DNA of 64,000 nucleotides, taken from Thermoanaerobaculia bacterium (GTDB lineage Bacteria; Acidobacteriota; Thermoanaerobaculia; Multivoradales; UBA5704). The DNA lies in NCBI GenBank assembly GCA_035544895.1, contig DASZZM010000092.1:5852-69851 (forward strand). Reading direction: 5' to 3'. This document shows positions 2,837-29,230 of this stretch, piece after piece (position 1 is the first letter of the stretch; each line of letters starts with the position of its first letter). A program made the position numbers and the translations under genes. The notes beneath the pieces were generated by a model. It saw only the letters and a list, made by a program, of their open reading frames with translations. It did no database searches and was not told the origin of the DNA.

Positions 2837-2842
2837 GGCAGC

Positions 2843-3616: not shown

Positions 3617-3840
3617 AGTTCTCCTCTTGCTCGCATCTCGGCAGCTCGACATGAGCACGACCCCCAAGCCAAACCGGCCCTGGCCACGTCGAATGCTCCA
3701 ATGCGTACAAGCCATCCCCCGAGGAGCTGGGATGGCTCTTCACTAATTCTGCTCAAGAGTTATGCGATTCTTGTGCCAGACTGACCTTCTCGCTGGCGTG
3801 AACCGGGCGTGGTATTGGCGCCAGGGCGCGCCCGGTCTTC

Positions 3841-4179: not shown

Positions 4180-4205
4180 GCGCAGGAGACCCTGGCGGCA
4201 GGCTG

Positions 4206-5411: not shown

Positions 5412-5550
5412 AGGGTCCCCTCAAACGACCGAGGAATAGTGAAGTCTCTATGCTTTAAGCTACAGTGCCGGCTTTCTCCTGTCAAGTTTATCGCAGGACA
5501 CCTCAAGTGTTGCTTGAAGTTTCTAAGTGTCCCCCACCGGGTAGGGAGCA

Positions 5551-6636
5551 CTAGGGCAGCTTTGCCCGCCGCTCGTCGGCGACCGCGGCCACGGCAGTGC
5601 CGGGAAAACGGCGGATCACATCTTTGTAGCTTGCCCGCGCTCCCTCGAGGTCGCCCAGTCCCTCGAGCGACATTCCCGCCTTGAGCAGGGCATCCGGAGC
5701 CTTGCTGCCGTCCGGGTAACGCTCAACGGTTTCGCGAAACGCGGCCAGCGCACCCCGGAGGTCGCCGCGCGAATAGCGGCACTCGCCAATCCAGTACTGG
5801 GCGTTGTCGGCCAGCGCGCTCTTGGGGTTGGCCTGGAGGAAGCGCTGAAAGCTCGTCTCCGCATCGATAAAATGCTTCTGATGATAGAGGGTGTAGCCGC
5901 GGTCGTAGAGCGCCTGGATCGCCGGGGTAGGTGGCTCGGCCCCCGGCTGAGATTCCCCGCCCGCGGCTTTCGCGCCGCTCGCGCCGCTCGCGCCACCGGC
6001 GCCGCTGGCGACGCTGGCTCCAATCGTGCCGTGCGCCGGAGCCGCCGAGGGCGGCCGCCCTCCTCCAGGCGGCATCTCGATATCCGTCTCGCTGATTTCC
6101 GTCGCACCCGCCGTCGGCGGCGCCTCGGCGGCTCTCCGGGCCGGCGGGAGCTCCGCGGGCTTCGAGACCTCCGAGCTGGCGGCCCGCGGGCTCGGCGCGG
6201 CCGGCCGGGCGGGCTGGCCGGAAGGCGGCAGCGAGGCCGCCGGCGGGCTGGCGGGCGCCGCTGAGATCGCCATTCCTGCTTGAGGCGGCGCCGATTTGGC
6301 AGCGGACCGCTGGACGGGAGCCGAGCCCACGGGCTGGCGGCGGACCGGCGCCGACTTCGTCATCCGGTCCTGCGCGGCCCCCCGTGGCCCGGCATTCCCG
6401 GCGGACGGCGACGAGGTCCCGGCCAGGCGCGTCTCCAGATCGGCGACCTGTTGCCGCAACCGGGCCAGCTCGACCTCGCTGACCGCGGCTTTGCGCTGCA
6501 GCTCGAGGACCCGCGCCTGCAACTCGCGAATCTGGTCCTCCGGCGTGGGATCGGAACGGCTCCCCATGCTCGCGCAGCCGGCGCCGAGCAGCAGGACACC
6601 CGACAGGAGCAGCGGCGAAAGGCTGCGACGAATCAT
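5551..6636 (-). CDS. cpoB: Tol-Pal system protein CpoB/YbgF (coiled-coil plus TPR)
   Basis: Signal/lipo N-terminus, coiled-coil (QIRELQARVLELQRK...LARLRQQVADLETRL), Pro/Ala-rich linker, C-terminal TPR block (YDRGYTLYHQKHFIDAETSFQRFLQANP...AQYWIGECRY...). Confidence 0.75.
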   Translation of the reverse strand: MIRRSLSPLLLSGVLLLGAGCASMGSRSDPTPEDQIRELQARVLELQRKAAVSEVELARLRQQVADLETRLAGTSSPSAGNAGPRGAAQDRMTKSAPVRRQPVGSAPVQRSAAKSAPPQAGMAISAAPASPPAASLPPSGQPARPAAPSPRAASSEVSKPAELPPARRAAEAPPTAGATEISETDIEMPPGGGRPPSAAPAHGTIGASVASGAGGASGASGAKAAGGESQPGAEPPTPAIQALYDRGYTLYHQKHFIDAETSFQRFLQANPKSALADNAQYWIGECRYSRGDLRGALAAFRETVERYPDGSKAPDALLKAGMSLEGLGDLEGARASYKDVIRRFPGTAVAAVADERRAKLP

Positions 6637-7430
6637 AGCCCGGCCTTTCCTTCCGGGATCTCCCGGAGCAGCGGGCTCTTCGGGTACTCGGTGCGCAGCC
6701 GCTCGAAGGCTTTGCGGGCCTCGTCGGACTTCCGCATCTGCGCGTACGCGATTCCCAGGTTGTAGATGACCTTGTCTTTATCCGGATACTTGGGATAGGT
6801 TTGGAGCAGATACTCGAAGCGCTGGACCGCCGCGCCAGGGACTCCGTAACGCAGGTAGAACCGTCCGATCAGGAACTCGTGCTCGGCCAGCTTGGCTGCC
6901 ACGGCGCCGGCCTGCTCCTGGGCATGGGCCGCGTACTCGCTGGCCGGGTAGAGCCGGACCAGGTCCAGGAAGGCTTCGAGCGCCTTCCTGGTCACGGTCT
7001 GATCGCGGTCCGGCCGCTCCATGCGCTTGCTCAAGCTGTTGGCGATCTGGAACTGCACGTATGCCGCTTGCTCGCTGGTGGGAAAGCGGTTCAGGTAGTC
7101 GCGATACTTGGCCTCCGCCTGCACGTAGTTCGCGGAGCCCCCTTCCAGGTAGTAGGTGTCGGCGGCGAGCAGCAGGCTCTCCCGGCCGATCTTGGAATTC
7201 GGCTCGACCTCGAAGGCGTGCGAGAAATAGGGCCTGGCCCGAGAGTACTTCTCCTTGGCCAGCCACTGCTTGCCCTGAACGAGCGACTCCTCGGCCGAAA
7301 GCCGCAGGACCGGGTCCGCGGGCTTGCCTCCACCACCATGGCAGCCGCTGAGCGCCAGGGCGCCCAAACAAGCAAGACTGGCCAGGCGGACCAGCGCGGC
7401 GCACGGCGACAAAGGCCAGATCTTCTTCAT
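6633..7430 (-). CDS. bamD: outer membrane protein assembly factor BamD (TPR lipoprotein)
   Basis: MKKIWPLSPCAALVRLASLACLGALALSGC lipobox, then TPR repeats (YFSHAFEVEPNSKIGRESLLLAADTYYLEG...YVQFQIANSLSK...). Overlaps cpoB by 4 bp. Start taken at the internal Met (MKKIW). Confidence 0.8.
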   Translation of the reverse strand: MKKIWPLSPCAALVRLASLACLGALALSGCHGGGGKPADPVLRLSAEESLVQGKQWLAKEKYSRARPYFSHAFEVEPNSKIGRESLLLAADTYYLEGGSANYVQAEAKYRDYLNRFPTSEQAAYVQFQIANSLSKRMERPDRDQTVTRKALEAFLDLVRLYPASEYAAHAQEQAGAVAAKLAEHEFLIGRFYLRYGVPGAAVQRFEYLLQTYPKYPDKDKVIYNLGIAYAQMRKSDEARKAFERLRTEYPKSPLLREIPEGKAGL

Positions 7431-7539
7431 AGGCTCTCCAGGGCTCGGCGGGCCGGGGCGACGGAGCAACGCGCGCGCCTGGGGACCCCGACCGGCCGCT
7501 CTACATGTTACCGCGAACCGCGATCGACGGGAGAACTGG

Positions 7540-8313
7540 TCATGGCTCGCCCTCTGCCGTGGCCACCACCAGCGAGACCGGGTCGCCGCGGGTCAACGGA
7601 TGGCCGGGAAGCGGGAACTGCCGCAAGATCACTCCCGCCGCCACCCCTTCGTAGCGCTCGAATTTGACGCTGCCGAAACGAAAACCTCGGCGCTCGAAGA
7701 AGGGGCGCACCACGTCGTAATGGCGATACACCAGGTCCGGCATGAGATACCTCTCGCCCGTCGCCGTCATCGCCAGCAGCAGGTCCACCGTGGTGGCGGG
7801 AGCGACCGAGAAGCCGGGATCGGGATCCTGTTCCAGCACCGAGCCGGCCGGACGCCGCGCCTCGAACGCGCCGAGGATGCTGCCTACCCCGAGCCCGAGC
7901 GCCGAAAGGGTAACCTGCGCCGCGGGCAGCGCCTTGCCCGCGAGGTTGGGGACTTCGACCCGCCGCGGGCCCAGCGAGAGGACGAGCTCCACGCCGCTCC
8001 CCCGCTTGACGAACGTGCGGGCGTCCGGACTCTGACGGACCACGTGCCCGATCGGGATCTTGTCGTCGTAGCGTCCGGGATGGCTCACCTGGCGCAAGGC
8101 GAGCCCGCGGTCGGCGAGCAGGTTGGCGGCGTCGGTCCGCGACAGCCCCGTCACCTGGGGCACTGCAATGACGCCGCTGCGCACGAAGGAGCTGAAGGCG
8201 AAGTAGCCCGCCAGGATGAAAACGACCACGACGAGCAGCAGGTAAGCGACGAATCCGAGCGCGTGCAGGAGCTTCCGCAGCATGCCCGGCGAGTGTACCA
8301 AAGGGGGGCGCAC
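7540..8313 (-). CDS. membrane-anchored PASTA-domain protein
   Basis: N-terminal TM helix (LLHALGFVAYLLLVVVVFILAGYFAF) followed by two PASTA-like repeats (VPQVTGLSRTDAANLLADRGL...; VEVPNLAGKALPAAQVTLSALGL...). Confidence 0.6.
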   Translation of the reverse strand: MRPPLVHSPGMLRKLLHALGFVAYLLLVVVVFILAGYFAFSSFVRSGVIAVPQVTGLSRTDAANLLADRGLALRQVSHPGRYDDKIPIGHVVRQSPDARTFVKRGSGVELVLSLGPRRVEVPNLAGKALPAAQVTLSALGLGVGSILGAFEARRPAGSVLEQDPDPGFSVAPATTVDLLLAMTATGERYLMPDLVYRHYDVVRPFFERRGFRFGSVKFERYEGVAAGVILRQFPLPGHPLTRGDPVSLVVATAEGEP

Positions 8314-8342
8314 GGCAGGCGGGCGACGCTAGAATCACCACC

Positions 8343-9233
8343 ATGAAATTCAAGCCTGTCTTGGGCGCGCATGTCTCGGTGGCCGGCGGCGTCGCCTCGG
8401 CCTTCGGGCGCGCCGCGCGGCTCGGCTGCGATGCCATCCAGATCTTCGTCAAGAACGCCAACCAGTGGCGGGCCAAGCCGCTCGAGCACGCGGAAGCGGC
8501 CGCCTTCCGGCAGGCCCACGCCGCCAGCGCGGTCGGAGTCGTGGTGGCGCACGCCTCCTATCTGATCAATCTGGCCGCCGGCGACGGGCTCGTTCGCGAG
8601 AAATCGGCCGAAGCCCTGGCCGACGAGCTGGCGCGCTGCACGAAGCTTGGTCTCCGCGGTCTGGTCGTCCACCCTGGAGCGCATCTTGGAACCGGCGAAG
8701 AAACGGGCCTCGACCGCGCCGCCGCCGCGCTCGACCGCGTCCTGGCCGCGCTGCCCCGCGCCTCGTGCCGCCTCCTGCTCGAAAACACCGCCGGCCAGGG
8801 AAGCTGCCTCGGCTGCCGCCTCGAGCATCTCGCGGCGATCCGCGCCCGGCTGCCCGCGCCGCGCCGCCGGCGTGTGGGCTTCTGCATCGATACCTGCCAC
8901 GCCTTCGCCGCCGGCTACCCCATCCACCATGCCGCCGGCTGGAAAGCCTTCATGGCCGAGGTCGAGGCGCTCCTCGGCCTCGACGCCCTTGCCTGCATCC
9001 ACCTCAACGACTCGCTCCGCCCCTTCGCCTCGCGCCGCGACCGCCACGCCCACATCGGCGACGGCCAGATCGGCCTCGACGCCTTCGCCCGCTTCCTCGC
9101 CGAGCCGCGCCTCGCCGGCATCCCGATGATTCTCGAGACCGACCCCGGCAACGACCAGGAAGGCCACGCCCGCGACCTCGCCGTCCTCCGCGGCCTCACC
9201 CTCCCCGCCCGGCGCCGATCGTCGAAGAGATAA
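8343..9233 (+). CDS. nfo: deoxyribonuclease IV (endonuclease IV, AP endonuclease)
   Basis: MKFKPVLGAHVSVAGGV...AIQIF...VVHPGAHLG...LLLENTAGQG...GFCIDTCHAFAAGY...HLNDS... is a canonical Nfo TIM-barrel signature. Confidence 0.9.
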   Translation: MKFKPVLGAHVSVAGGVASAFGRAARLGCDAIQIFVKNANQWRAKPLEHAEAAAFRQAHAASAVGVVVAHASYLINLAAGDGLVREKSAEALADELARCTKLGLRGLVVHPGAHLGTGEETGLDRAAAALDRVLAALPRASCRLLLENTAGQGSCLGCRLEHLAAIRARLPAPRRRRVGFCIDTCHAFAAGYPIHHAAGWKAFMAEVEALLGLDALACIHLNDSLRPFASRRDRHAHIGDGQIGLDAFARFLAEPRLAGIPMILETDPGNDQEGHARDLAVLRGLTLPARRRSSKR

Positions 9234-9240
9234 GTCAGTA

Positions 9241-9345
9241 GTGCGTGAGAGGGCGGGGGCGTCCCCTTCCCCCCCGGAGGGGAGGGAAGGGGATCGAGGG
9301 GTTGCGGGGGGCGATCCAATAGATGCTTCGAGTAGTCCACCAGCG
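9241..9345 (-). repeat. REP/MITE-like hairpin repeat, copy A (inverted orientation)
   Basis: Reverse complement reads catctattggatcgccccccgcaacccctcgatccccttccctcccctccgggggggaaggggacgccccc, matching copies at 34971, 41984, 46841 and 54228. Lies between the convergent nfo and rseP ends. Confidence 0.7.
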
Positions 9346-9377
9346 CCACGTCGCAGCGCTGATTCGCCCTATGGGAT

Positions 9378-10691
9378 CTACGACCCCGGCGGGCCAGGCA
9401 GGTGCTTCGCGAGATCAAAATAAATCACCACCGCCATCAGCATCAGGATGAGCACGAAACCCACCTGGCTGATCACCTCCTTGACGCGCACGGAGAGGTC
9501 GCGGCGGATCACCTCCTCGATCAGCAGGATGAAGATCTGCCCGCCGTCGAGAATGGGAATCGGCATCAGGTTGAGCAGAGCGATGCTTATGCTAAAGAAG
9601 CCCATCAACTGCAAAAGGAACTTGAACCCGATGCGCGCCGCCTCCCCGCTCGCCTGGGCCATCCCGATCGGGCCGGCCAGGGCTCCCTTGGCCGACATCT
9701 CGCGGCGGAAGATCTTGCCCAGGATCCGGAAAGTGTCGCTGACGATCTGCAGGCTGTACCTTACGCTCTCGACCAGGGCCTTACCGGGCGGATAGCGCTG
9801 GAAGAAGCCCACTCCGACTCCGATCTTGCCCACCTTGCCCTCGGTCCGGGGGACTACGGCAAGGGAGAGGATCCTGCCGTTGCGCGCCACCTGGATGGTC
9901 ATCCGCTGGCCGGGCCGCTTCTCGATCGCCGCGATGAAGTCCCGGCGGTCGGCGATCGGACGCCCCTCGACAGACCGGATCTCGTCACCTGGGCGGAAGC
10001 CCGCCGCGGCGGCGGGGCTCCCTTTCTCGACCTGCATGATCTGCGGCCGGAAAGAGGGGATCAGGCCGGCGTAGTCCCCCATGCCGTACTTGGGCACCAT
10101 CTGGGGGACAACCCTGGCGGTGAACCGATGCCCGTCCCGCCGGGCTTCCAGCGCGACCGGGCGGTTTGGTGAAGTCATCAGCACGAACTCGACGTCTTGC
10201 CAGCTCGACACGTTCTCGCCATTGGCTCGCACGACGAGGTCGCCGCGCTGCAAGCCGGCCGCGGCGGCTGACGAGCCGGGTTCTACCCCGCCGACGAGCG
10301 GCGGCATGCCCGGGAGGTTCGGCAGCTCGATGCCGACCATGAAAAGGCCGGCGAACAGAGCGACCGCCAGCACCACGTTCATCGTCGGGCCGGCCAGGTA
10401 GACGAGCACCCGCTGCCAGCGCGGCTTGCTCAGGAACTCGCGTGGATCGCCGGTCGATTCCTCGGGGTTCTCGCCGCCCAGCCGCACGTAGCCGCCCAGG
10501 GGAACGAGCGAGATCCGGTATTCCGTCTCGCCGCGCGTGAAACCCACGAGACGCCTGCCGAAGCCGATCGAGAAGGTCATCACGCGGACCCCGAAGGCCT
10601 TGGCGACCATGAGGTGCCCGGCTTCGTGGACGATGACGATGACGCCGAGGGCGAAACCGAAGGCAAGGATGGTGATGAGGGTGTCGTTCAT
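9378..10691 (-). CDS. rseP: RIP zinc metalloprotease RseP (site-2 protease)
   Basis: HEAGHLMVAKAFGV HExxH in the first TM, PDZ region, LDGG motif (NLMPIPILDGGQI). Start taken at MNDTLITILAFG. Confidence 0.85.
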   Translation of the reverse strand: MNDTLITILAFGFALGVIVIVHEAGHLMVAKAFGVRVMTFSIGFGRRLVGFTRGETEYRISLVPLGGYVRLGGENPEESTGDPREFLSKPRWQRVLVYLAGPTMNVVLAVALFAGLFMVGIELPNLPGMPPLVGGVEPGSSAAAAGLQRGDLVVRANGENVSSWQDVEFVLMTSPNRPVALEARRDGHRFTARVVPQMVPKYGMGDYAGLIPSFRPQIMQVEKGSPAAAAGFRPGDEIRSVEGRPIADRRDFIAAIEKRPGQRMTIQVARNGRILSLAVVPRTEGKVGKIGVGVGFFQRYPPGKALVESVRYSLQIVSDTFRILGKIFRREMSAKGALAGPIGMAQASGEAARIGFKFLLQLMGFFSISIALLNLMPIPILDGGQIFILLIEEVIRRDLSVRVKEVISQVGFVLILMLMAVVIYFDLAKHLPGPPGS

Positions 10692-18223: not shown

Positions 18224-20554
18224 CTAGAGCATCTCCAGGTTGGCGTAACGGGCGATCAGCTTGCGCTTGCCGGCGTTCTGGAAGAAGACGGTGATCTTGG
18301 CGTCCTCGCCCTGGCCGTCGAGCTCCAGGACGACGCCCTGGCCGAGGGTGGGGTGGCGCACGCGGCTGCCGCGCTTGAGCGGCCGCCGGTAGGAGGCCGC
18401 CTGGGCTTCGCCCCTGTCGGGCTGGTCTTCCTCCCATGCCTCTTCGGCGAACCGGGCAGAGGCGCCGGAGCCCTGCCCGGCGGGTCGACCGGAAGCGCCG
18501 GGTCCCTGCCCAACTCGATTGGAAGCGCCGCCGAAAAAGGAATAGACGCCTTGCGCGCGGGAATCGAAGCGCCGGGCGCTTTCGGCTCCCGCCGAATAGT
18601 AGAGGGCCGGGCTGTGCCGCACCTCGAGCAGCTCGGCGGGCAGCTCGGACAGGAAGGCGGACTCCTCCTGGTCCTGGTAGCGCCCGGCGATGCGCCGCCG
18701 CCGGCAGCGGGACAGATACAGCCGCTCGCGCGCCCGCGTCATCCCGACGTAGAGCAGCCGGCGCTCCTCTTCGATGTCTTCCGGCAAGCCTTGCGAGTTG
18801 AAATGCGGCAGCAACCCCTTCTCCAACCCGGCCACCACGACGACCCTGAACTCCAGCCCCTTGGCGCTGTGCAGGGTCATCAGCGACACACCGCGGTCGG
18901 CCGCGAGCAGGTCGAGGTCGGTCACCAGCGAGACGTGGTCGAGAAAGGCGGTCAGCAGATCCGCGTCGCCGGCGTTGTAGCTGTTCTTCTCGGTGAACTC
19001 CTGGGCCGCCGAAAGGAACTCCCGGATGTTCTCCAGGCGCGCCTGGTCTTCGGGATCGTCCTTCTTGTAGAGGTCGTCGTAGCCGGTGGCGGCGAGCAGG
19101 CGGTCGAGCAGGGCGGGCAGCGGCAGCTCGGCGGCGGCTTGCTGCAAGTCCACGATCAGGTCGCGGAAGCGCCGCAAGGCAGTGGCGCTGCGCGCCGGCA
19201 GCCCACCCAGCTCGTCCAGGTAGAGGACGTCCCACAGCGGCTGACCGAGCTGCACGGCCTGGTCGCGCAGAAGCTCGAGCGTTGCCTTGCCGATGCCGCG
19301 CGGCGGCTGGTTGAAGATGCGGGCGAGCGAGAAATTGTCGCGCGGGTTGCGCAACACCCGCAGGTAGGCCACCAGGTCCTTGATCTCGGCGCGATCGTAG
19401 AAGCGCACTCCGCCGACGAGCGAGTAGGAGACTTCCTGCTTGAGCAGCTCGTCTTCGAGGGCCCGGGTCTGCGCGTTGGTGCGCACCAGGATCGCCATGT
19501 CCGCCAGCTTGTAACGCCCGCGCAGCCCTTGCAGCGTCTCAACCGCCCACCGCGCCTCGTCCCCTTCGTCGAGGGCGCGATAGAGCTCCACTTTGGCGCC
19601 CGCGCCGCTATCGGTCCACAAGCGCTTGCCGCGGCGGTTCACGTTGTGGGCAATGAGCGCCCCCGACAGGTCCAGGATGCTCTGGGTAGAGCGATAGTTG
19701 CGCTCGAGTTTCCTGACCACTGCGCCGGGAAAGGACTTTTCGAAGTCCAGGATGTTGTCGAGGTCGGCGCCGCGCCAGCGGTAGATTCCCTGGTCCTCGT
19801 CACCGACCGCGGTCAGGTTGCCTGCCGCGCCGGTCAGCTCCCGGATGAGCCTGAGCTGCGCATGATTGGTGTCCTGGTACTCGTCGACGAGCAGGTAACG
19901 GGTGCGCGCGCACACCCGGGCCCGTACCTCCTCGTCGGAGGCCAGCAGCTTGACCGACAGCGCGATGAGATCGTCGAAATCGACTCCGGAAGCCTGGTGC
20001 AGCAGCCCCTGGTAGCGGCGGTAGACGGCGGCGTGCTTGCGGTCGGTGAAGCCTTGGGCCGACGCCTCGAAGGCGGCCGGCTCGATCAGCAGGTTCTTGG
20101 CGCTACTGATCCTGGCGAGCACCGAGCGGGGCGAGAACGCGGTCTCGGAAAGGCCCTCGCCGGCCAGCGCCTCCTTGACCAGCGCGAGCTGGTCGGCAGC
20201 GTCGTGGATGGCGAAGTCGCGCTTGAGGCCGACGCGCTCGCCGTAGCGGCGTAGCAACAGCAGCCCAAAGCGGTGGAACGTGCCGACCGAGGCGGCCAGC
20301 GGATGCGTGCCCAGGAGGTTCTCGACGCGCTCGCGCATCTCGGCCGCCGCCTTGTTGGTGAAGGTCATGGCCGCGATGTGCCCGGGGTCCACGCGGCGCT
20401 CCTCGGCCAGCCACCAGATGCGGTAGGTGATGACCCTGGTCTTGCCCGACCCGGCGCCGGCGAGCACGAGCTGCGGCCCTTCGCCGTGGGTCACGGCGGC
20501 GATCTGCTCGGGGTTGAGATGTCGCTCCAGGCGGGCGGTGACGCTCTCGCTCAC
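18224..20554 (-). CDS. uvrD: ATP-dependent DNA helicase UvrD/PcrA family
   Basis: LNPEQIAAVTHGEGPQLVLAGAGSGKTRV (motif I), LLVDEYQDTNHAQ (II), ...ERNYRSTQSIL (IV), ...TLHSAKGLEFRVV..., plus C-terminal Tudor-like tail. GTG start at 20554 gives MSESVTARLERHLNPEQ. The listed 1218-aa ORF is extended upstream through antisense of the next gene. Confidence 0.9.
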   Translation of the reverse strand: MSESVTARLERHLNPEQIAAVTHGEGPQLVLAGAGSGKTRVITYRIWWLAEERRVDPGHIAAMTFTNKAAAEMRERVENLLGTHPLAASVGTFHRFGLLLLRRYGERVGLKRDFAIHDAADQLALVKEALAGEGLSETAFSPRSVLARISSAKNLLIEPAAFEASAQGFTDRKHAAVYRRYQGLLHQASGVDFDDLIALSVKLLASDEEVRARVCARTRYLLVDEYQDTNHAQLRLIRELTGAAGNLTAVGDEDQGIYRWRGADLDNILDFEKSFPGAVVRKLERNYRSTQSILDLSGALIAHNVNRRGKRLWTDSGAGAKVELYRALDEGDEARWAVETLQGLRGRYKLADMAILVRTNAQTRALEDELLKQEVSYSLVGGVRFYDRAEIKDLVAYLRVLRNPRDNFSLARIFNQPPRGIGKATLELLRDQAVQLGQPLWDVLYLDELGGLPARSATALRRFRDLIVDLQQAAAELPLPALLDRLLAATGYDDLYKKDDPEDQARLENIREFLSAAQEFTEKNSYNAGDADLLTAFLDHVSLVTDLDLLAADRGVSLMTLHSAKGLEFRVVVVAGLEKGLLPHFNSQGLPEDIEEERRLLYVGMTRARERLYLSRCRRRRIAGRYQDQEESAFLSELPAELLEVRHSPALYYSAGAESARRFDSRAQGVYSFFGGASNRVGQGPGASGRPAGQGSGASARFAEEAWEEDQPDRGEAQAASYRRPLKRGSRVRHPTLGQGVVLELDGQGEDAKITVFFQNAGKRKLIARYANLEML

Positions 20555-20701
20555 CTCCGCAGTCTCGCCGAGCCCGCGGGGCTTGGCAAGCCCGCGCAAG
20601 GCGCCGGCGGCGCTGCAGGCCGGACGGCGGGAATCCGCCCCTGCCAATGGCGCGTTGCGTGTGTTGTAGTACTGTACGCGGCCGGGCGCCTGTCTAGGCG
20701 C

Positions 20702-20734
20702 CGATGTCCGCCCGATGTCCGCCCGATGTCCGCC
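20702..20734 (+). repeat. perfect 11-bp tandem repeat x3 (cgatgtccgcc) spanning the candidate start codons of the ClpX-like gene
   Basis: Sequence ...gcg ccgatgtccgc ccgatgtccgc ccgatgtccgc cgccattgtg...; each unit carries an ATG in a different frame. Only the third (20726) is in frame with the downstream ORF. Confidence 0.85.
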
Positions 20735-21844
20735 GCCATTGTGAGCCAGCCAGCCATGAAACCGGTCGAGATCTACAACTTCCTGGAACAGCACGTCATC
20801 GGCCAGCAAGAGACGCTGCGCTACGTCTCGGTGGCCATCTTCAAGCACCTCCAGGGCGAGAAGTACGGCAACCTGCTGCTGATCGGCAACTCCGGCACCG
20901 GCAAGACCACGATCATGCGCGCCGTGGAGGCGCTCTACGGCGCCTACCCGGAGTTCAGCGAATACCGCGTGGTCCTCATCATGAACGCGAGCACCCTCGC
21001 CGCCGAGGACGGGTCGGTCGATACCAGCCGCCTGTTCAGCCGCCTCGAAGAGCGCGTCCGCCTGCTCCTCGGTGGCGCCGCCTCGGCCGAGGAGGTCGTG
21101 CGGGCGATGGAGCGCGCCACCATCTGCCTGGACGAGATCGACAAGATCTCCGGAGTGATCGGCGGCAAACCCTACGTGACCGGGATCAACATCCAGCAGG
21201 CCCTGCTGACGCTGATCGAAGGCGAGCGGGTGCCGCTTGCGCTGACCGCGGTCCGCGGCGGGATCCCCGAGTCGACGTCGCTGTGGATCGATACCAGCAG
21301 GATGCTCTTTCTGTGCGCCGGAGCGTTCGAGAACCTCTACGACCAGGTTTTCGCGCGCGTCACCTCGGCCAAGAGCGGTGTCAAGCTGCCGACCACCACT
21401 ACTTATGTCAACGGCAAGATCCAGATTCGCGAGTACTTCACTCTGCGCAACCATTTCCGTCAGGAGGATCTTTTCGAATACGGGATGCAGCCCCAGTTCC
21501 TGTCCCGCTTCGACAACGCCGTCATTCTCGACGATCTCAACCCCGGCGTGCTCTGCCGTATCTTCAAGGAGCCGGCCAGCGGCGTCTTGCAGCTGTCGCG
21601 GAATTTTTTCCGCAAGTACGGGATCGATCTCGAGATCACCGACGACGCCGTGCAGAAGATCGCCGAGGAAGCTGCCAGGAGCAGCCGCATCGGCGCGCGC
21701 GCCTTGAAATCGGTCTATGGGCGGGTCATCAAGCCTTTCGAGTTCGATCCCTTCGCCCAGGGACAGATCGAGGCGGCCGGCGGACGTCACCGCCTGGTCA
21801 TCGACGAGTCCCTGGTGAGCAGCGCTCTGAAGCCGCCGGTTTAG
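20726..21844 (+). CDS. ClpX-like AAA+ ATPase lacking the N-terminal zinc-finger domain
   Basis: KPVEIYNFLEQHVIGQQETLRYVSVAIFKHLQ...NLLLIGNSGTGKTTIMRAVE...ICLDEIDKISG...ARALKSVYGRVI... follows the ClpX/HslU family layout, but there is no C4 zinc ribbon. Alternative start at ATG 20756 (MKPVEIY). Confidence 0.7.
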   Translation: MSAAIVSQPAMKPVEIYNFLEQHVIGQQETLRYVSVAIFKHLQGEKYGNLLLIGNSGTGKTTIMRAVEALYGAYPEFSEYRVVLIMNASTLAAEDGSVDTSRLFSRLEERVRLLLGGAASAEEVVRAMERATICLDEIDKISGVIGGKPYVTGINIQQALLTLIEGERVPLALTAVRGGIPESTSLWIDTSRMLFLCAGAFENLYDQVFARVTSAKSGVKLPTTTTYVNGKIQIREYFTLRNHFRQEDLFEYGMQPQFLSRFDNAVILDDLNPGVLCRIFKEPASGVLQLSRNFFRKYGIDLEITDDAVQKIAEEAARSSRIGARALKSVYGRVIKPFEFDPFAQGQIEAAGGRHRLVIDESLVSSALKPPV

Positions 21845-21861: not shown

Positions 21862-23922
21862 TTGGCCCTCCCCGATCCATCGCCGCGCGCGCGGAGCGCG
21901 ATCACCGCCGAGGTGGCGCGGCAGACCGCCGACGCGTTGGCCGCCAAGCACGGCAGCGGTCATGCCGAGCGCATCCGGCTCGGCGTCGAACAGGCGGCGC
22001 GCCACTGGTGGGCCGAAGATGGCGGCGCCGGGGACTTCAGCGCTTTCTGCCTGGCCAACTTCCTGGCCGACGAAGCCGCCCTGGCGAAGTGCTTCGCCCG
22101 GGTCGAACAGGTTCTCGAGCAGGTGGACGGGCATCTCTTCGAGGCGAGGCGCGAGCTCACCACCCCGCTCGATCTCGATACCGGCCCCCTGTCGCAGGTG
22201 GACCGCCTGTTCGCCGACGTCGACCTCGCGCCGCACGTCGACGAAAACCTGTTCCGCGCCAGGGTGGCATTCGTGGCGCTCCTCAACTTTCCGGTGCATA
22301 CGCTGGGCGAGCGCCTGGCGGGCGGCGCGGCATGGGACCGCGAGACCTGGGCGCGGTCGCGCATGATGGACCGCTTCGCCGCGCGCGTGCCGGCGGAGGT
22401 GCAGCAGCACGTTTCCCTGGCCTTCACCGCGGCCGAGGAGTACGTCGGCTCGTACAACATCCGCATGGACCGCCTGATCGACGCGCAGGGCCGACCGCTC
22501 TTTCCTCCCGGACTTCGCCTCCTCTCCCACTGGGGGCTGCGCGACGAGCTCGCGGCGCACTACGCCAACTCCGACCGCCGGGCGGCGCTCGCCCGGCAAC
22601 GCCTGATCGCCCGTGTCATGGAACGGATCGTGCGCCAGGAGATTCCGGCGGCGGTCGTCGACAACCCCGAGCTGCTGTGGGAGCCCGAGAGCAATCGAGT
22701 GCGGCCGGCGGGCGGCGGCGAGGCGGCCGGCGGCGCTGGCGGCGCTGGCGGCGATGGTGGCGAGCGTGAAGCGGACCGCCGCTACGCGCACCTTCTGGCC
22801 ATCTGCCGCGCCGTGCGCCAGGTCGATCCCTACAGCCCGGCGGCGCCCACCTACATCGCGCGCAAGTTCGAGCGCGAGCGGCAGATTCCTGAACGGGAGG
22901 TCGAGGCGCTGCTCGTCTCGGTGCTCGAAGCGCCGGAGGCCGAGCGGCTGGCGCGGCTGATCGAACGCCGCCTCGGCCGGCCACTCGAGCCGTTCGACAT
23001 CTGGTACTCCGGCTTCAAGAGCCGCGCCGCCCATGGCGAGGAAGAGCTCGACGCACGGACGCGGGCGCTGTATCCGACGCTCGAGCGGTTCCAGGCCGCG
23101 GTGCCGGAGATCCTGGAGCGGCTAGGCTTCGCGCCCGACAAGGCGCGCTGGCTGGCCGAGCGCATCATGGTGGACCCGGCGCGCGGCGCAGGCCACGCGC
23201 TGCCCGCCATACGCCGGCAGGACCGCGCTCACCTGCGCACCCGCCTCGGCCGGGACGGCATGGACTACAAGGGATTCAACGTCGCGCTGCACGAGATGGG
23301 GCACAACGTCGAACAGGTGTTTTCGCTCAACGGCATCGACCACTGGTGGCTCGCCGGCGTGCCCAACACCGCCTTCACCGAAGCCTTCGCCTTCGTCTTC
23401 CAGAAGCGCGACACGGAGCTGCTCGGCCTCGCCCCGCCCGCCGAGGAGGCGCGTCGCGCCGATGCCCTCGGCACCCTGTGGAACACCTTCGAGATCGCCG
23501 GCGTCTCTCTGGTCGACATGCAGGTGTGGCACTGGCTGTACGACCATCCGGAGGCGGCGGCGGCGGAGCTGCGGCAGGCCGTGCTGGCCATCGCGCGCGA
23601 CGTCTGGAACCGTTACTTCGTTCCTCTCTTCGGGGCGGCGACCCGCGACGCGGAAATCCTGGCCATCTACTCGCACATGATCGCCTATGGGCTCTACCTG
23701 CCCGACTACGCGCTCGGCCACATCATCGCTTCCCAGGTGGCGGGCCGTCTGCGCGAAGGCGACTTCGCCGGCGAGCTCGAGCGCCTGGCGCGGCAAGGCC
23801 GCCTCACCCCCGATGCCTGGATGCAAGGCGCCGTCGGCGGCCCGCTCTCCGCCCGCCCCCTGCTGGACGAAGCACGCCAGGCGCTGGACGCCCCCGGGCT
23901 GAGCAGTTCCGCCGCCGGCTGA
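21862..23922 (+). CDS. putative zinc metallopeptidase (HExxH...E, gluzincin-like), about 690 aa
   Basis: Long frame-1 ORF continuing from a TTG at 21862, 18 bp after the ClpX-like stop; ALHEMGHNVEQVF...(about 26 aa)...FTEAFAFVF fits HExxH plus a downstream Glu ligand. The listed ORF 20704..23922 is spurious upstream of 21862. Confidence 0.6.
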   Translation: MALPDPSPRARSAITAEVARQTADALAAKHGSGHAERIRLGVEQAARHWWAEDGGAGDFSAFCLANFLADEAALAKCFARVEQVLEQVDGHLFEARRELTTPLDLDTGPLSQVDRLFADVDLAPHVDENLFRARVAFVALLNFPVHTLGERLAGGAAWDRETWARSRMMDRFAARVPAEVQQHVSLAFTAAEEYVGSYNIRMDRLIDAQGRPLFPPGLRLLSHWGLRDELAAHYANSDRRAALARQRLIARVMERIVRQEIPAAVVDNPELLWEPESNRVRPAGGGEAAGGAGGAGGDGGEREADRRYAHLLAICRAVRQVDPYSPAAPTYIARKFERERQIPEREVEALLVSVLEAPEAERLARLIERRLGRPLEPFDIWYSGFKSRAAHGEEELDARTRALYPTLERFQAAVPEILERLGFAPDKARWLAERIMVDPARGAGHALPAIRRQDRAHLRTRLGRDGMDYKGFNVALHEMGHNVEQVFSLNGIDHWWLAGVPNTAFTEAFAFVFQKRDTELLGLAPPAEEARRADALGTLWNTFEIAGVSLVDMQVWHWLYDHPEAAAAELRQAVLAIARDVWNRYFVPLFGAATRDAEILAIYSHMIAYGLYLPDYALGHIIASQVAGRLREGDFAGELERLARQGRLTPDAWMQGAVGGPLSARPLLDEARQALDAPGLSSSAAG

Positions 23923-24195
23923 GCAGGCCCGCGCCTGACACCCGGCGTTCGCCGCGCGGAGGCGCCGGAGCCGGCGTCGTCCGCGCCGTCCGCAGCGGTC
24001 CTACGCCAGCAAGCGGCTTTCGCCTATTGAAGCAAGCCAGGAAGGTCAATACCCTCAAGGAGTTAGAGAGGCGCGTGTGGTCCGGATGTGCTAGGATGGG
24101 CCGCTCGCTACAGTGAGATTCCCGCATAGTCGAGGCGATGCAGCGGTAGACCACGCGCGATCCCTGGCTATGAGAGGTGAAACGAGGAGATCGTC

Positions 24196-27100
24196 ATGAG
24201 CGTTCGCTGCCATTGCCTTTTCGCCAAATTCCTGGCCTGCGGCCTTGCTGTCGTCTTTTCCCACTCCGCGCCGGCGGCGCCACTGTGCGCGACTCCCGGA
24301 AAGGATGGAGTCGGCACGGCGATCACGGGCATCGTCAACAGCTACTTCCCGGGGACCGGCACGCCGGCGGCAGGAAACACCAGCCTCACTGTTGGAGCGC
24401 GTGCGGGCGCGGCAGCCAACATCGCGTCGGGCGATCTGGTGATGGTCATCCAGATGCAAGACGCCACGATCAACGGTTCGAACGATACCGACTACGGCCG
24501 GACGGGCGGCAATGGAGCCGGCTCTACGATCAACAATTCGGGCCTCTACGAGTTCGTCAAGGCGACGAGCGCGGTGGGGGCGGGGGGCGGAACGCTCACT
24601 TTTGTCGGCGCGGGTGCCAACTCGGGTCTGGTCAACTCCTATGCCACCGCGGCCGCGAGCGCGACGCGAGGTCAGCGCACCTACCAGGTGATTCGAGTGC
24701 CGCAGTACACCGGCGTGTCGCTAGCCGGCGGGTTGACCGCGCTGGCCTGGAACGGGTCCGCCGGTGGAGTGCTGGCGATCGACGCGAGCGGCCCCTTGTC
24801 TTGGAATGGCGCTACCGTGGACGTCTCCGGCCTGGGCTTCCGGGGCGGTGGCGGCGTGCTCAAGACGGGTGGGGCAGGGGGCGCCAACACGGACTATCGC
24901 ACCGTGTCCACGAATGCCTTCAATGGCGCCAAGGCGGAAGGGATCGCCGGCACCCCAATCGACATGTGGAGCGGTACCGCATTGGTCCATGGCCCGGCGG
25001 AAGGGTACCCCAACGGCGCCTACGCCCGGGGCGCTCCCGGGAATGCCGGAGGCGGCGGAACCGACGGCGACCCGCCTGCCAACGACGAGAATTCGGGCGG
25101 TGGCGGCGGGGGCAATGGAGGTGTGGGCGGGCAGGGCGGGAATAGCTGGAGATCGAATTTGGCTGTCGGCGGCCTCGGCGGCGATGCGTTTGCCAATGCC
25201 GGCGGCAGGCTGGCGATGGGCGGCGGTGGCGGCTCGGGAACGCTCAACAACGGTGACGACAACGCCGGCAACACGGGTCTGCTGAGCAACGGCGGGCTGG
25301 GTGGCGCGCTCGTTCACTTTCGCTTCAACACCACCGCTGGGACCGGCACGCTCCGCTCCGACGGCACGGCCGGTGCCAATATCGGGCGCGACGGCGCCGC
25401 CGGGGGAGGGGCCGGCGGGACCATCTTCGCGGCCGGTTGCGCCGGCCTCTCGGGGCTCACCGCCCAGGCGCGCGGAGGCGCCGGCGGCAACGTTCATTGG
25501 GCACTGTCTGACGGTAACGACCCTCCGGGCTATTCGCGGGACGATCACGGTCCTGGGGGTGGCGGCGCCGGCGGCGCGGTCCTGACGTCGGCGGCAGCTA
25601 CGACCGCGGTGACGGGTGGGGCCCACGGCGGCTCTGGCAAGCCGGAGAGCGGCATCGCCAACGTGGCCTATGGTTCTACCTCCGGTGCCGCCGGGACGGT
25701 CTCGGCGACGATCACGGCGGCCTCGCCCTCCGGCGTCGCCGCCGGTTGCACCTGCAGCCCGACGGCGGCCGTCGTGGTGTCGCTGCGAGCGGTCGAGGAG
25801 CCGGGAGGCGTCGTCGTGCACTGGGAGACTAGAGGGGAGGACGGCACCGCGGGCTTCGACCTCTACCGCTTGAGCTCTGAGAGCGGGCAGTTCGAACGCG
25901 TCAACGACAGCCTGCTGGTGGCGCCTCCGGGCGAAGTCCAGGGCGGTGCCTACAGCCTCGTCGATCCTCAGGCGCAGCCGGGTGCGGCCCATACCTACCG
26001 GCTGATCGAGCGCGAGGCCGGCGGGGTTGAGCGGGTGTTCGGACCCTGGCAGGTCGAAATCGAAAGACCGGTCGCGGCCCCGGATGCCGCCCGCGCCGGC
26101 AGGGAATACGGCGCCTCGCCGCGCGAGCGCGATGCGGCTCTGCTGGAGCGCCTCGCGGCGGCGGAGCGCGACTTCGCGGCGGAGAGCGGCTTCGCGATGT
26201 TCGCGACGAGGGAGAGCGGCGAGCTCCGCGGCGCCGCGCTCGATTCTCCACAGGCGAAGGATCTTCCCCGGCTGAGGCTTGCCGTAGACGGCGACGGGAT
26301 TTACTTCGTCTCGTCGCTCCACGCGGGTCAGCAGCTCGGATTGACCGAGTCCCAGGTGGCCTCGCTCATCAGCGCGGGTTCGTTGCGCCTCACCAGCCGT
26401 GGCCAGGAGGTGGCCTGGCTGCCCGTAGCCGGCGGCTTCTACTTCTACGCGCAGGCGATCGACAGCATCTACACTCGAACCAATGTCTACATGGCGCAGT
26501 TCGGACAGAAAGGCAAGCAGATCGTATCGAGCGCGCCTCCGCCGGCGCGACCGGCGACGGCGTCGCAGAGCTTCCTCGAGCGGCTTCACGCCGAGCAGGA
26601 GAACTTCGCCGCCACGGCCGTGGCTCGCGATCCGGCGTCGGACTACTGGTTCTGGGACTTTGTGATCGCCGGGGACCCGACCTACGGCACGCGCACCTTT
26701 ACGATCGACGTGCCCGATCTCGCCGGCGCCTCTCCAGGGGCCTTGCAAGTCTCGCTTTTCGGCGCTACCGATACTCCGGCGGCCCAAGACCATCACGCCC
26801 ACATGAGACTGAACGGTGCTGATGTAGGGGACGTCCGTTTCGACGGCATCGGCAGCTTCAGCAGCAGCTTCTCGCTGCCTCCTGGCCTCTTGCGGGCTGG
26901 AGCGAACTCGGTTGAGGTGAGCGGGATTCTCGACAGCGGCGCACCCTACAGCATCTTCTACGTCGATTCCTTCGACCTGACCTACCCGCGTCTCTACCGG
27001 GCGCGGTCGGACCGGCTCGAGCTGACCGCCAGCAGCGATGCGGTGGCAACGATTGCCGGCTTCAGCTCCGGCAAGATCACGGTCTTCGACGTCTCGAACG

Positions 27101-28338
27101 CGCGTTTTCCAACACGCGTGGAGTCCATTACCGACCAGGCGGACGGCTTCCGGGCCAGCTTCACTCAAAGGGCGGGCGGGCGTTACTTCGCCGCGGGCGC
27201 CAGTTCGATCGTCGAGCCGGGTCTGGGCATCACGCGAGCGACGAAGTTGCAGGTGCAGGACACCGACTATCTGATCGTAGCTCCTCGTTCACTCGTCAGC
27301 GCGGCCGGCGATCTTGCGAAATACCGGCGAAGCAGCGGTTTCTCGCCCCTCGTCGTCAGCCTCGAGGACGTTTATGACGAGCTCGGGGAAGGCATCGCAA
27401 GCCCGGAAGCCCTCAAGTCGTTTCTTGCGCAATTCAGCTACTCCGCGCAAGGGGAAGTGCGCTACGTGGTGCTGGTCGGCAAAGGCACCTTCGACTACAA
27501 GGACTATCTCAAAGTGGGTGGGAACTTGATGCCGCCGTTGCTCGGGTCGACGCCCTTCGGTCTTTACGCTGAGGACAGCCTTTTTGCACCGCTCGCAAAT
27601 GGGGCGCCCACGCTCAGCATCGGCCGGTTGCCGGTCGTCGGCGCGGCAGAGCTGACGGGGTACGTGGCGAAGCTGCAGGCCTATGAGCATGGAGCGCATC
27701 AGCCGTGGATGTCCCGGATCGTCTTGTCGGCCGACAGCGCCGGCGCCAGTGGAAATTTCCCGAGTGACAGCGAGGCGTTGGTGCCGTTACTACCAGCCGG
27801 CTTGGCCGTCGATCGCGTGTATCTGACGGGCGATCCGGCACAGATCGGCGCAGAGCGCTCAGCCCTTCTCAACGACCTCGCCAAGGGAGCCTTGCTCTGG
27901 AACTACGTGGGGCACGGTGCGCTGGATCGCCTTTCGGCGGAGAGCCTTTTCACCAATGCCGATGCACCCGCCCTGAACAACGCCGGCAGGCTGCCCGCTT
28001 TGGTCGCGATGACGTGTTCGGTCGGTCGATTCGAGGTCCCGGGCTTCGTGTCCCTGGCCGAGACCCTGGTCGTCGGCCAGGACAAGGGCGCAATCGTTGC
28101 CTGGGTTCCCGCCGGCTTGTCGGTCGATGCGGAGGCGGCGACGCTCAATCGAGCTCTCTTCGAGCAGCTTTTCGGTGCCCGTAACTCTCCGGTGAGCTTC
28201 GGCCAGGCGGTGGTGGCGGTGCTCCGGAAGTATGGACAGTCCGCGGCCCCTGAGCCATTCATGCGGACGCTGTACAACGTGATCGGCGATCCCGCGGTGC
28301 ATCTGCGAACCGGCGCCCGCAGCAACGTTGTACAGTGA
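24196..28338 (+). CDS. giant secreted protein: Gly-rich N-terminal repeat region plus C-terminal peptidase C25 (gingipain-like) domain
   Basis: Signal peptide MSVRCHCLFAKFLACGLAVVFS; about 550 aa of GGxGG/Asn-rich repeats; C25 hallmarks DTDYLIVAPRSL...LAKYRR..GFSPLVVSLEDVYDE, catalytic His WNYVGHGALDRL and Cys LPALVAMTCSVGRFE about 34 residues apart (clan CD spacing); AGGAG RBS. Confidence 0.8.
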   Translation: MSVRCHCLFAKFLACGLAVVFSHSAPAAPLCATPGKDGVGTAITGIVNSYFPGTGTPAAGNTSLTVGARAGAAANIASGDLVMVIQMQDATINGSNDTDYGRTGGNGAGSTINNSGLYEFVKATSAVGAGGGTLTFVGAGANSGLVNSYATAAASATRGQRTYQVIRVPQYTGVSLAGGLTALAWNGSAGGVLAIDASGPLSWNGATVDVSGLGFRGGGGVLKTGGAGGANTDYRTVSTNAFNGAKAEGIAGTPIDMWSGTALVHGPAEGYPNGAYARGAPGNAGGGGTDGDPPANDENSGGGGGGNGGVGGQGGNSWRSNLAVGGLGGDAFANAGGRLAMGGGGGSGTLNNGDDNAGNTGLLSNGGLGGALVHFRFNTTAGTGTLRSDGTAGANIGRDGAAGGGAGGTIFAAGCAGLSGLTAQARGGAGGNVHWALSDGNDPPGYSRDDHGPGGGGAGGAVLTSAAATTAVTGGAHGGSGKPESGIANVAYGSTSGAAGTVSATITAASPSGVAAGCTCSPTAAVVVSLRAVEEPGGVVVHWETRGEDGTAGFDLYRLSSESGQFERVNDSLLVAPPGEVQGGAYSLVDPQAQPGAAHTYRLIEREAGGVERVFGPWQVEIERPVAAPDAARAGREYGASPRERDAALLERLAAAERDFAAESGFAMFATRESGELRGAALDSPQAKDLPRLRLAVDGDGIYFVSSLHAGQQLGLTESQVASLISAGSLRLTSRGQEVAWLPVAGGFYFYAQAIDSIYTRTNVYMAQFGQKGKQIVSSAPPPARPATASQSFLERLHAEQENFAATAVARDPASDYWFWDFVIAGDPTYGTRTFTIDVPDLAGASPGALQVSLFGATDTPAAQDHHAHMRLNGADVGDVRFDGIGSFSSSFSLPPGLLRAGANSVEVSGILDSGAPYSIFYVDSFDLTYPRLYRARSDRLELTASSDAVATIAGFSSGKITVFDVSNARFPTRVESITDQADGFRASFTQRAGGRYFAAGASSIVEPGLGITRATKLQVQDTDYLIVAPRSLVSAAGDLAKYRRSSGFSPLVVSLEDVYDELGEGIASPEALKSFLAQFSYSAQGEVRYVVLVGKGTFDYKDYLKVGGNLMPPLLGSTPFGLYAEDSLFAPLANGAPTLSIGRLPVVGAAELTGYVAKLQAYEHGAHQPWMSRIVLSADSAGASGNFPSDSEALVPLLPAGLAVDRVYLTGDPAQIGAERSALLNDLAKGALLWNYVGHGALDRLSAESLFTNADAPALNNAGRLPALVAMTCSVGRFEVPGFVSLAETLVVGQDKGAIVAWVPAGLSVDAEAATLNRALFEQLFGARNSPVSFGQAVVAVLRKYGQSAAPEPFMRTLYNVIGDPAVHLRTGARSNVVQ

Positions 28339-28383: not shown

Positions 28384-28809
28384 ATGGGTGCGGAGGCGGA
28401 GAAGATCGAGGAGAGACTGCGCAGCTTCCTCTCCGCCAGGGCTGAGGCGGAGGGGCTCGCCGCGGCATATCTCTTCGGCAGCGTCGCTCGCGGGACCGCC
28501 CGCCCGGAAAGCGACATCGACGTCGGGGTGCTGTACCGCGACGATCCACCCGCTTCTCTCGAAGGTCTTCCCGTTCGTCTCGAGGCCGATCTCGCAAAGC
28601 TCCTCCACCGTCCGGTGCAGGTGGTCGTCCTCAACCGTGCCCCGGTAGACCTTGTCCAGCGAGTGCTTCAGCACGGCAAGCTGCTGCTCGACCGCGACAG
28701 CTTCCGTCGCATCCGCTTCGAGGTCCGGACGCGCCAGGAGTTCTGGGATCTGGAGCCATACCTGCGCCAGTACCGCAGGATGGGTGGCGGAGACCGTGAC
28801 CGGTCCTGA
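28384..28809 (+). CDS. nucleotidyltransferase-domain antitoxin (MNT)
   Basis: AAYLFGSVARGTARPESDIDVGVLY is the GSxxRGxxxxxSDxD minimal nucleotidyltransferase motif. Confidence 0.75.
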   Translation: MGAEAEKIEERLRSFLSARAEAEGLAAAYLFGSVARGTARPESDIDVGVLYRDDPPASLEGLPVRLEADLAKLLHRPVQVVVLNRAPVDLVQRVLQHGKLLLDRDSFRRIRFEVRTRQEFWDLEPYLRQYRRMGGGDRDRS

Positions 28810-29230
28810 TCTCGCACTCGTCGCCAAGAAGCTGGCGCTGATCGAGACGTGCGTCGAGGAGCTGCGCACGCTGGGTCATCCTGAGCGTATTCGCTCCGAC
28901 CTTCGCGAGGAGCGTTTCTTCGAGCACACTCTCCAGATCGCCATTCAATCCATTCTCGACGTCGCGTCCCACATCGTTTCCGAGCGGCGCCTAGGCGAGC
29001 CGCGCAGCAACCACGAGCTCGTGGATCTGCTGGCTCGCCACGCTTGGATCGACATGGATCTGGCCTCCACCCTGCACCAGATGATCGGCTTTCGCAACAT
29101 CCTGGTCCATGGCTACGATAGCGTCGATCTCTCGATCCTCGAGGAGGTCGTGCGCAACCGGCTGGACGATCTCCTTGCCTTTGCAAGCGCAATCAGGAGG
29201 CGGATCTCTCATTCACCCGGTAACGGGTGA
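28784..29230 (+). CDS. HepT-like ribonuclease toxin (DUF86)
   Basis: MIGFRNILVHGYDSVD contains the HepT Rx4HxY motif; GTG start overlapping the MNT stop (coupled pair). Confidence 0.7.
   Translation: MAETVTGPDLALVAKKLALIETCVEELRTLGHPERIRSDLREERFFEHTLQIAIQSILDVASHIVSERRLGEPRSNHELVDLLARHAWIDMDLASTLHQMIGFRNILVHGYDSVDLSILEEVVRNRLDDLLAFASAIRRRISHSPGNG

Follow-up and report, generated by a model that had tools for sequence, protein, structure and literature searches.

The subject here is a single gene in a 64,000-nucleotide stretch of DNA from a Thermoanaerobaculia bacterium (phylum Acidobacteriota; contig DASZZM010000092.1; the whole stretch is referred to below as the window), where an open reading frame (ORF) running from 24196 to 28338 on the forward strand and starting with ATG encodes a protein of 1380 residues. 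Judged from its sequence, the product is a Sec-exported envelope protein made up of five parts, namely a signal peptide, a glycine-rich "tip" module, an FN3-like domain, a variable linker and a cassette of ~675 residues resembling PorU, the C-terminal signal peptidase/sortase in the T9SS (type IX secretion system). This identification of the domains can be made with high confidence. What the protein does is a more tentative matter: by analogy with other sorted surface proteins it is quite possible, although this falls short of being probable, that the PorU-like cassette acts on its own N-terminal passenger, either in cis or between copies, so as to release or to anchor it. A preliminary description of the same DNA had proposed a secreted protein in which a Gly/Asn-rich repeat region is combined with a C-terminal gingipain-type (C25) cysteine peptidase, in a domain order reversed relative to that of the gingipains; parts of that proposal stand and others do not, as will be seen. 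The parts of the gene, with their positions in the window, are these:

24184..24189, + strand: Shine-Dalgarno-like GAGGAG, 6 nt 5' of the ATG, read from the sequence
24196..24282, + strand: signal-peptide-like leader, aa 1-29 MSVRCHCLFAKFLACGLAVVFSHSAPAAP, from the translation, the protein's only hydrophobic 19-mer
24283..25785, + strand: Gly-rich globular tip module, aa 30-530, from NCBIfam NF047640, alignment and AlphaFold2 (AF2)
25786..26070, + strand: FN3/Ig-like beta-sandwich, aa 531-625, from Foldseek matches to FNIII domains
26071..26307, + strand: variable Ala/Arg-rich linker, aa 626-704, from composition and the alignment of 76 relatives
26308..27267, + strand: "mid" region, aa 705-1024, beta-sandwich domains that share homology with PorU's N-terminal ~390 residues
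27268..28335, + strand: C25 catalytic domain (clan CD, caspase-like), aa 1025-1380, from Pfam PF01364
27913..27915, + strand: codon of the catalytic His1240 (NYVGHG), 76/76 invariant, aligned with His211 of RgpB and the GHG motif of PorU
28015..28017, + strand: codon of the catalytic Cys1274 (AMTCSVG), 76/76 invariant, aligned with Cys244 of RgpB and the TATC motif of PorU

The presence of a C25 peptidase at the C-terminus, as first proposed, is clear. Peptidase_C25 (PF01364) is the sole Pfam match to the protein, aligning with aa 1025-1369 over positions 1-373 of the 374-position model at E=6.3e-65 (220.3 bits, where the cutoff is 23). The two residues that had already been picked out as catalytic, the His in NYVGHG and the Cys in AMTCSVGRF, are His1240 and Cys1274, and since they and their flanking glycines are invariant in all 76 aligned relatives the enzyme is probably active. 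The peptidase core had been placed at about residues 900-1380, which is right as to its C-terminal position but not as to its limits, given that the Pfam domain begins at about aa 1025 and the wider region homologous to PorU at about aa 705.

It is in the choice of closest relative that the earlier assignment as gingipain-type has to be revised. Apart from PorU, the characterised C25 enzymes are proteases (the gingipains), while PorU is to our knowledge the sole C25 enzyme known to be a sortase, and has been studied only within the T9SS of Bacteroidota. In the present case several comparisons single out PorU. The top NCBIfam match is T9SS_sortase PorU (NF033707; 225.2 bits, aa 757-1372 against model positions 105-734 of 1095), the PorU2 model being matched also; PorU (6ZA2) is the only PDB sequence matched by the whole protein in a plain sequence search; and in a phmmer search with the catalytic domain alone PorU is found at E=1.7e-7, with no gingipain at E<=10. 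A profile built from the 76 relatives and compared with the PDB aligns over its positions 667-1360 with PorU residues 8-786 at E=8.8e-49, whereas against RgpB it aligns over the catalytic domain only (E=2.6e-28). The AF2 model of aa 690-1380 (pLDDT 94.2, pTM 0.92) behaves in the same way in Foldseek, which ranks PorU first (E=3e-31, ~800 columns) and gives RgpB and Kgp E values of 1e-17 to 1e-14 over ~380 columns with TMt of 0.62-0.68; further matches to separase and the CHAT protease are in keeping with a caspase-like alpha/beta fold. The mid region taken by itself (aa 705-1024) finds no PDB match by single-sequence search. At the level of individual residues, no equivalent of RgpB Asp163, the acidic S1 residue behind Arg/Lys specificity, is evident, the aligned family consensus being weakly conserved with an indel nearby, and the position of RgpB Glu152 is replaced in the consensus; D1180, close to the Asp163 position, is common to this protein and the AAD motif of PorU.

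By sequence, profile and predicted fold, then, residues ~705-1380 are collinear with PorU residues 8-786, both proteins consisting over this length of N-terminal beta-sandwiches followed by a catalytic domain with its His/Cys dyad. Because the family profile and Foldseek align across PorU but with gingipains over the catalytic domain only, the domain order is not reversed, as had been thought, but that of PorU; ahead of it stands an extra passenger at the N-terminus, and the C-terminal domains of PorU are missing. The differences from PorU are correspondingly ~700 extra residues at the N-terminus (module, FN3-like domain and linker), the lack of ~370 residues at the C-terminus, and a host in Acidobacteriota, a phylum with no known T9SS. 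With the gingipains RgpB and Kgp (PDB 1CVR, 4IEF, 4RBM, 6I9A) the likeness is confined to the catalytic fold and the positions of the dyad, and their prodomain, IgSF and HA domains and C-terminal sorting domain (CTD) have no counterpart. Propeptide_C25 (PF08126), a check suggested at the outset, has no match even at E<=1; nor has Por_Secre_tail at E<=1, and a T9SS CTD is lacking, as had been correctly noted, although the same tool readily found CTDs in Bacteroidota relatives, and the protein stops ~10 aa past the C25 domain.

Secretion, too, was correctly predicted, to judge from the hydrophobic leader. In homologues such a leader always lies immediately ahead of a conserved C(A/G)TPG(K/R)DG, and a hydrophobicity scan of the whole protein shows no further segment beyond the leader that is sufficiently hydrophobic to span a membrane. 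A lipoprotein reading of Cys31 was rejected by eye, the residues preceding the cysteine (…AAPL-C, …AAQP-C, …AQT-C) being mismatched to L-[AS]-[GA]-C.

Turning to the passenger, the preliminary description had seen in it a Gly/NG repeat region of beta-helix or adhesin-like character. Rich in glycine it certainly is (25% Gly and 12 GGxGG motifs over aa 30-530), but NG dipeptides are at chance level (9 observed in the N-terminal 500 aa against 8.3 expected), and the label "repeat region" had to be dropped, as Tandem Repeats Finder detects no tandem repeats of note in the DNA and self-BLASTP gives no off-diagonal match in the protein. Instead of a repeat array, the Gly-rich N-terminus forms a conserved autonomous globular domain of ~490-500 aa. 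It is 46-57% identical to its counterparts in 75 relatives, numerous columns of the alignment being invariant, as against an identity of only 26-42% for the peptidase half. Its invariant motifs include QMQ, K..E, RGAPGNAGGG..D and HGPGGG, and the cysteines at its two ends, Cys31 and Cys520, are conserved in at least 90% of sequences. Structural modelling, which had been recommended for this region, gives a confident result (AF2 on the module half, aa 28-640: pLDDT 89.8, pTM 0.85), almost entirely strand and coil. The suggestion of an adhesin-like character has held up; that of a beta-helix has not, since Foldseek against the PDB matches neither a beta-helix nor any other fold at E<=1e-3, only the FN3 part giving matches. 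Among the fold matches of the module model in BFVD are a PA14-domain protein of a Bathycoccus virus (prasinovirus; E=4e-14), an Ostreococcus virus protein and a Pandoravirus "collagen" protein, all of them predicted structures and uninformative.

When the module, the FN3-like domain and the mid region are submitted to Pfam as separate pieces, none has a match even at E<=10. The only curated model to recognise the Gly-rich module is NCBIfam NF047640, gliding_AgmC_N, describing the N-terminal domain of AgmC, an adventurous-gliding protein of Myxococcus (E=3.7e-29, 101.9 bits, model positions 36-408 of 412); it also matches the module in nine of nine proteins tested from other phyla. All these scores (100-173 bits) are well under the curated cutoff of 275, and the module is therefore a domain related to that of AgmC and not AgmC or its equivalog. 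No open-access literature was found that deals with AgmC of Myxococcus or with acidobacterial C25 proteins of the PorU-like kind. A census of the module by a full HMMER pass over 1.84 billion representative sequences returned 3,223 clusters at E<=1e-3, of which 786 also reach E<=1e-30, across many phyla; the matches are almost always full-length and ~50% identical, and about two-thirds begin directly behind a signal peptide. Within this material the module is found twice within one protein in P0092 (1072 aa, with a hydrophobic C-terminal tail and no C25 domain) and in L071, and in two adjacent genes of Pseudanabaena (L063), where L and P are our labels for loci and proteins respectively.

To see what else this module is attached to, 80 loci from a genome scan were sorted by architecture with module-specific hidden Markov models (HMMs). 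These come from Acidobacteriota, Chloroflexota, Dormibacterota, Cyanobacteria, Deinococcota, Actinomycetota, Bacteroidota, Gemmatimonadota, Eremiobacterota and Proteobacteria. About 35 of them, nearly all from Acidobacteriota, have the arrangement module-(DUF11)n-FN3-mid-C25, while in the remainder the module is joined to DUF11, SpaA-like (SpaA_4), isopeptide-pilin D2, GEVED, Big_9 or cadherin-like stalks. All five of the module-bearing Bacteroidota proteins (Adhaeribacter L066, Hymenobacter L070, Pontibacter L079, Chitinophagales L080 and Paracnuella L084) end with a T9SS CTD and are therefore PorU substrates; these cargo proteins have a CTD of their own and no C25 domain, and depend on a separate PorU acting in trans. 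An Acidobacteriota protein in L006 has a tail that looks IPTL-CTERM-like by eye, although no family scan called such a signal.

A further parallel is found in Chloroflexota and Dormibacterota. In a recurrent family there, a sortase domain comes after the module and DUF11 (of the 120 top clusters, at least 60 carry PF04203), and at the junction in L015 and L047 one reads LPNTSG, a spacer, a transmembrane (TM) helix, RFRRRRRR, a second TM helix and the sortase (…LVLITC…). Each of these two proteins thus joins an entire sortase substrate to its sortase, with cargo, sorting signal and transpeptidase in a single chain; we know of no previously described substrate-sortase fusion of this kind. Single chains of the form module-DUF11-LPNTSG-TM-Arg-TM-sortase (class F-like) occur at L015 5854-9102, L047 5854-9129 and L048 5833-8610, and among P0121-P0174; the sources give such proteins the name "sortase". 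They share with the Thermoanaerobaculia protein a ~50%-identical module behind a signal peptide, a beta-sandwich stalk and a C-terminal cysteine transpeptidase, if the last term may be applied to the PorU-like cassette; they differ from it in that the enzyme is a sortase of unrelated fold, that the sorting signal is canonical and accompanied by two TM helices, and that their hosts lack an envelope of the acidobacterial type. The relationship is accordingly one of homology at the N-terminus only and of analogy at the C-terminus. Taken together, the module outside the C25 family looks like a sorted surface cargo.

Among the C25 fusions there are also long forms of 2,000-3,300 aa, in which an N-terminal signal-peptidase-I/S24-like domain and a TM helix precede the DUF11 repeats (seen in L013 4246-5800, P0099, P0107 and P0118), so that these proteins may carry processing enzymes at both ends. 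In 27 of 34 loci, mainly those of long forms, genes for a maturase of the radical SAM/SPASM type, for a PqqD protein and for a ScmC-like protein (SynChlorMet-cassette, HprK-related) adjoin the C25 gene on the same strand (for example L013 1700-4340 and L001 7315-9908). This linkage suggests a system resembling those for ribosomally synthesised and post-translationally modified peptides, or another protein-modifying system, tied to the C25 family. As the radical SAM/SPASM and ScmC-like cassette is absent from the whole window, it is not used here to explain the Thermoanaerobaculia gene.

The region between passenger and enzyme also merits attention. In every complete C25 fusion, whatever the number of DUF11 repeats, the FN3-like domain lies immediately N-terminal to the linker and cassette. 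An HMM of this domain also matches four Bacteroidota cargo proteins (L070, proteins encoded next to L066 and L079, and the M4 peptidase of L084), where it lies 18-20 residues before the CTD; the Bacteroidota cargo thus has the module in common with the Thermoanaerobaculia protein and, in L070 and in neighbouring cargo genes, this pre-CTD domain as well. That the FN3-mid-C25 cassette is portable follows from L012, where there are two C25 genes in tandem (1253-5527 and 5863-9984), the first of which carries the cassette behind a different, Thr/Ser/Gly-rich passenger.

The reading to which these observations seem best suited is that a cargo and its sortase have been combined in one chain. It draws on two sets of facts: in three lineages the passenger is a surface cargo that undergoes sorting, and in one of them it is fused to its own transpeptidase, while here it precedes a PorU-type enzyme and is followed by an FN3-like domain of the pre-CTD type; and the enzyme itself has the lineage and invariant dyad of PorU, sits in a portable cassette and belongs with an enzyme of established chemistry. 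PorU cuts its substrates just upstream of the CTD (PMC10202324, PMC11285876) at a loose site, between [T/E/D/N] and [G/A/S], forming a thioester from which the cargo is then passed to anionic lipopolysaccharide (A-LPS) or to free amines (PMC10202324; PMC8545088, PMC11285876). For the fusion, Cys1274 would similarly attack the linker that follows the FN3-like domain, at one of its peptide bonds (aa 626-704 being the proposed processing site), to give a thioester, which on reaction with water would release the passenger and on reaction with an amine acceptor of the envelope would anchor it. A cut at this place is supported by the combination of an FN3-like domain ~20 aa before the CTD in Bacteroidota cargo with the known cleavage by PorU just before the CTD. 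The domain identities, the dyad, the collinearity with PorU and the pattern of architectures across phyla are shown; what substrate is cut and where, what acceptor is used and how the outer membrane is crossed are matters of inference.

There are clear points on the other side. The NF033707 score of 225.2 bits is below the curated cutoff of 420 bits, and PorU residues ~787-1158 (~370 residues, including the CTD, A1054-Q1158) are absent because the protein ends with the catalytic domain. No part of it takes the place of a CTD recognition domain. The i-E values (independent E values) of the pre-CTD FN3-like matches are modest (1.5e-5 to 1.5e-9). The linker is poorly conserved, the alignment of 76 relatives showing in it only a weak, semi-conserved xLL(S/E)xL; a conserved cleavage motif was considered and dropped, the weak xLLSxL element being unconvincing, and the loose PorU site cannot be specifically recognised there either. 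No partner gene is found to be kept at the locus, a His/Cys dyad fits plain hydrolysis equally well, one enzyme per cargo would be a costly design, and the argument from sortase fusions is one of analogy across unrelated enzymes, not of homology.

Given this balance, the view that the protein is an ordinary secreted or surface hydrolytic endopeptidase, concerned with nutrient acquisition or envelope remodelling and bearing the module and FN3-like domain as a binding appendage, ranks close behind the cargo-sortase reading and is nearly as likely; it is a possibility to be taken seriously, without being the expected one. The strong C25 match with its invariant dyad, a signal peptide unaccompanied by any membrane anchor, and a stand-alone gene with no conserved partners in several relatives would all be natural for such an enzyme, and binding appendages are common in multidomain bacterial proteases. 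Against this must be set the extension of the similarity over N-terminal domains specific to PorU and absent from gingipains, the lack of clear conservation at the RgpB Asp163 position, and the company kept by the passenger, which in other phyla is joined to genuine sortases complete with sorting signal and in Bacteroidota is T9SS cargo, something that would be unexpected of a mere appendage. A further step, to a gingipain-like protease with Arg/Lys specificity, a virulence or degradative role and rearranged domains, is very improbable, and this view is already largely refuted. It can call on the C25 fold, with the Foldseek and profile matches to RgpB and Kgp given above, but not on single-sequence searches, the propeptide, or the RgpB positions Asp163 (S1), for which no equivalent is evident, and Glu152, and the IgSF, HA and CTD regions are all missing.

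At the opposite extreme, a bona fide PorU orthologue that processes many CTD cargos in trans within a T9SS or T9SS-like system is just as hard to credit. The best curated model is indeed that of PorU, with PorU2 matched also, and the structural match is strong; however, the score reaches barely more than half of the cutoff, genuine PorU proteins have no Gly-rich passenger, no T9SS gene is present among the ~18 scanned neighbours, and the missing C-terminal part includes the CTD of PorU, which is not cleaved and is required for secretion and for PorV binding (PMC11285876). The T9SS has moreover been described as limited to Bacteroidota (PMC10202324, PMC5445135). Scarcely easier to accept is that the protein is primarily an adhesin whose C25 domain serves as a non-catalytic structural or anchoring module. 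The greater conservation of the N-terminal module than of the peptidase half would suit this, as would the adhesin stalks to which the module is joined elsewhere, but the invariance of His1240, Cys1274 and the flanking glycines in 76 of 76 relatives argues for retained catalysis.

As for the gene itself, the ORF first reported is borne out by its translation, by the GAGGAG ahead of its start and by a G+C content at third codon positions (GC3) of ~0.80 throughout, in a window of ~69% G+C. An identical 1380-aa protein is already present in NCBI; it comes from a metagenome-assembled genome of Thermoanaerobaculia (Acidobacteriota) and bears the name "C25 family cysteine peptidase". More than 2,600 relatives were scored, many of them full-length (coverage 97-99%, identity 35-45%, 1,320-1,600 aa), with hosts in Acidobacteriota and Competibacter/Contendobacter, so that the gene is no artefact and not one of a kind. 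The earlier characterisation as an uncharacterised type is thus correct in that no member of this architecture has been characterised, but it is no one-off, being annotated in NCBI and, in its module-to-C25 form, widely recurrent in Acidobacteriota. The family is a large one, already annotated automatically yet unstudied.

The gene appears to stand alone. A scan for promoters and terminators at the locus finds nothing exceeding chance, five homologue contexts have no gene neighbourhood in common with it, and the ~18 neighbours scanned within the window include no T9SS gene, with no PorV, PorQ or PorZ close by. On its 5' side are uvrD (-), an AAA_2 ATPase and an unannotated ~680-aa HExxH protein, and on its 3' side an MNT/HepT toxin-antitoxin pair, a pyridoxal phosphate (PLP) enzyme, a Crp regulator and a PDZ-GAF-GGDEF protein. 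The ~680-aa ORF directly 5' (21862-23922, +), which the GC3 frame plot favours as coding, contains the zinc-metallopeptidase motif HEMGH (HExxH), with no significant Pfam match and no obvious signal peptide. The AAA_2/ClpB-D2-like ATPase gene (20273-21844, +) abuts the convergent-looking uvrD (18224-~20540, -), whose 1218-aa ORF is over-extended, the UvrD domains beginning only at ~aa 455. The genes for MNT (Pol-beta nucleotidyltransferase; 28384-28809) and HepT (HEPN RNase; 28652-29230), both on the + strand, follow immediately, and toxin-antitoxin genes likewise flank homologues in L003, L004 and L005. Elsewhere in the window, positions 56001-58000 have a G+C content of 0.595, against ~0.68 in the rest, and may be a foreign or non-coding segment.

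If the protein should prove to be a plain secreted protease, the outcome would be a routine refinement of annotation, from gingipain-like to PorU-like; the cargo-sortase reading, if experiment were to show it to be true, would be considerably more interesting. In its most developed form, which is a good deal more speculative and on present analogies rather unlikely, the portable FN3-linker-PorU-like cassette would be a built-in single-chain sortase of Acidobacteriota that lack a T9SS, cutting its own passenger free behind the FN3-like domain and transferring it to an acceptor in the envelope, and the cassette could then be an evolutionary source or a relic of PorU. This would amount to a third independent solution to surface anchoring, beside the Gram-positive sortases and the PorU complex of Bacteroidota, with the same Gly-rich tip domain as cargo in all three. 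The work also brings into view that ~500-aa Gly-rich domain, which has ~3,200 clusters, no Pfam model and no solved structure but a confident predicted one, and the large family of PorU-like cassettes outside Bacteroidota provides a testable hypothesis for how abundant soil Acidobacteriota may decorate their surfaces.

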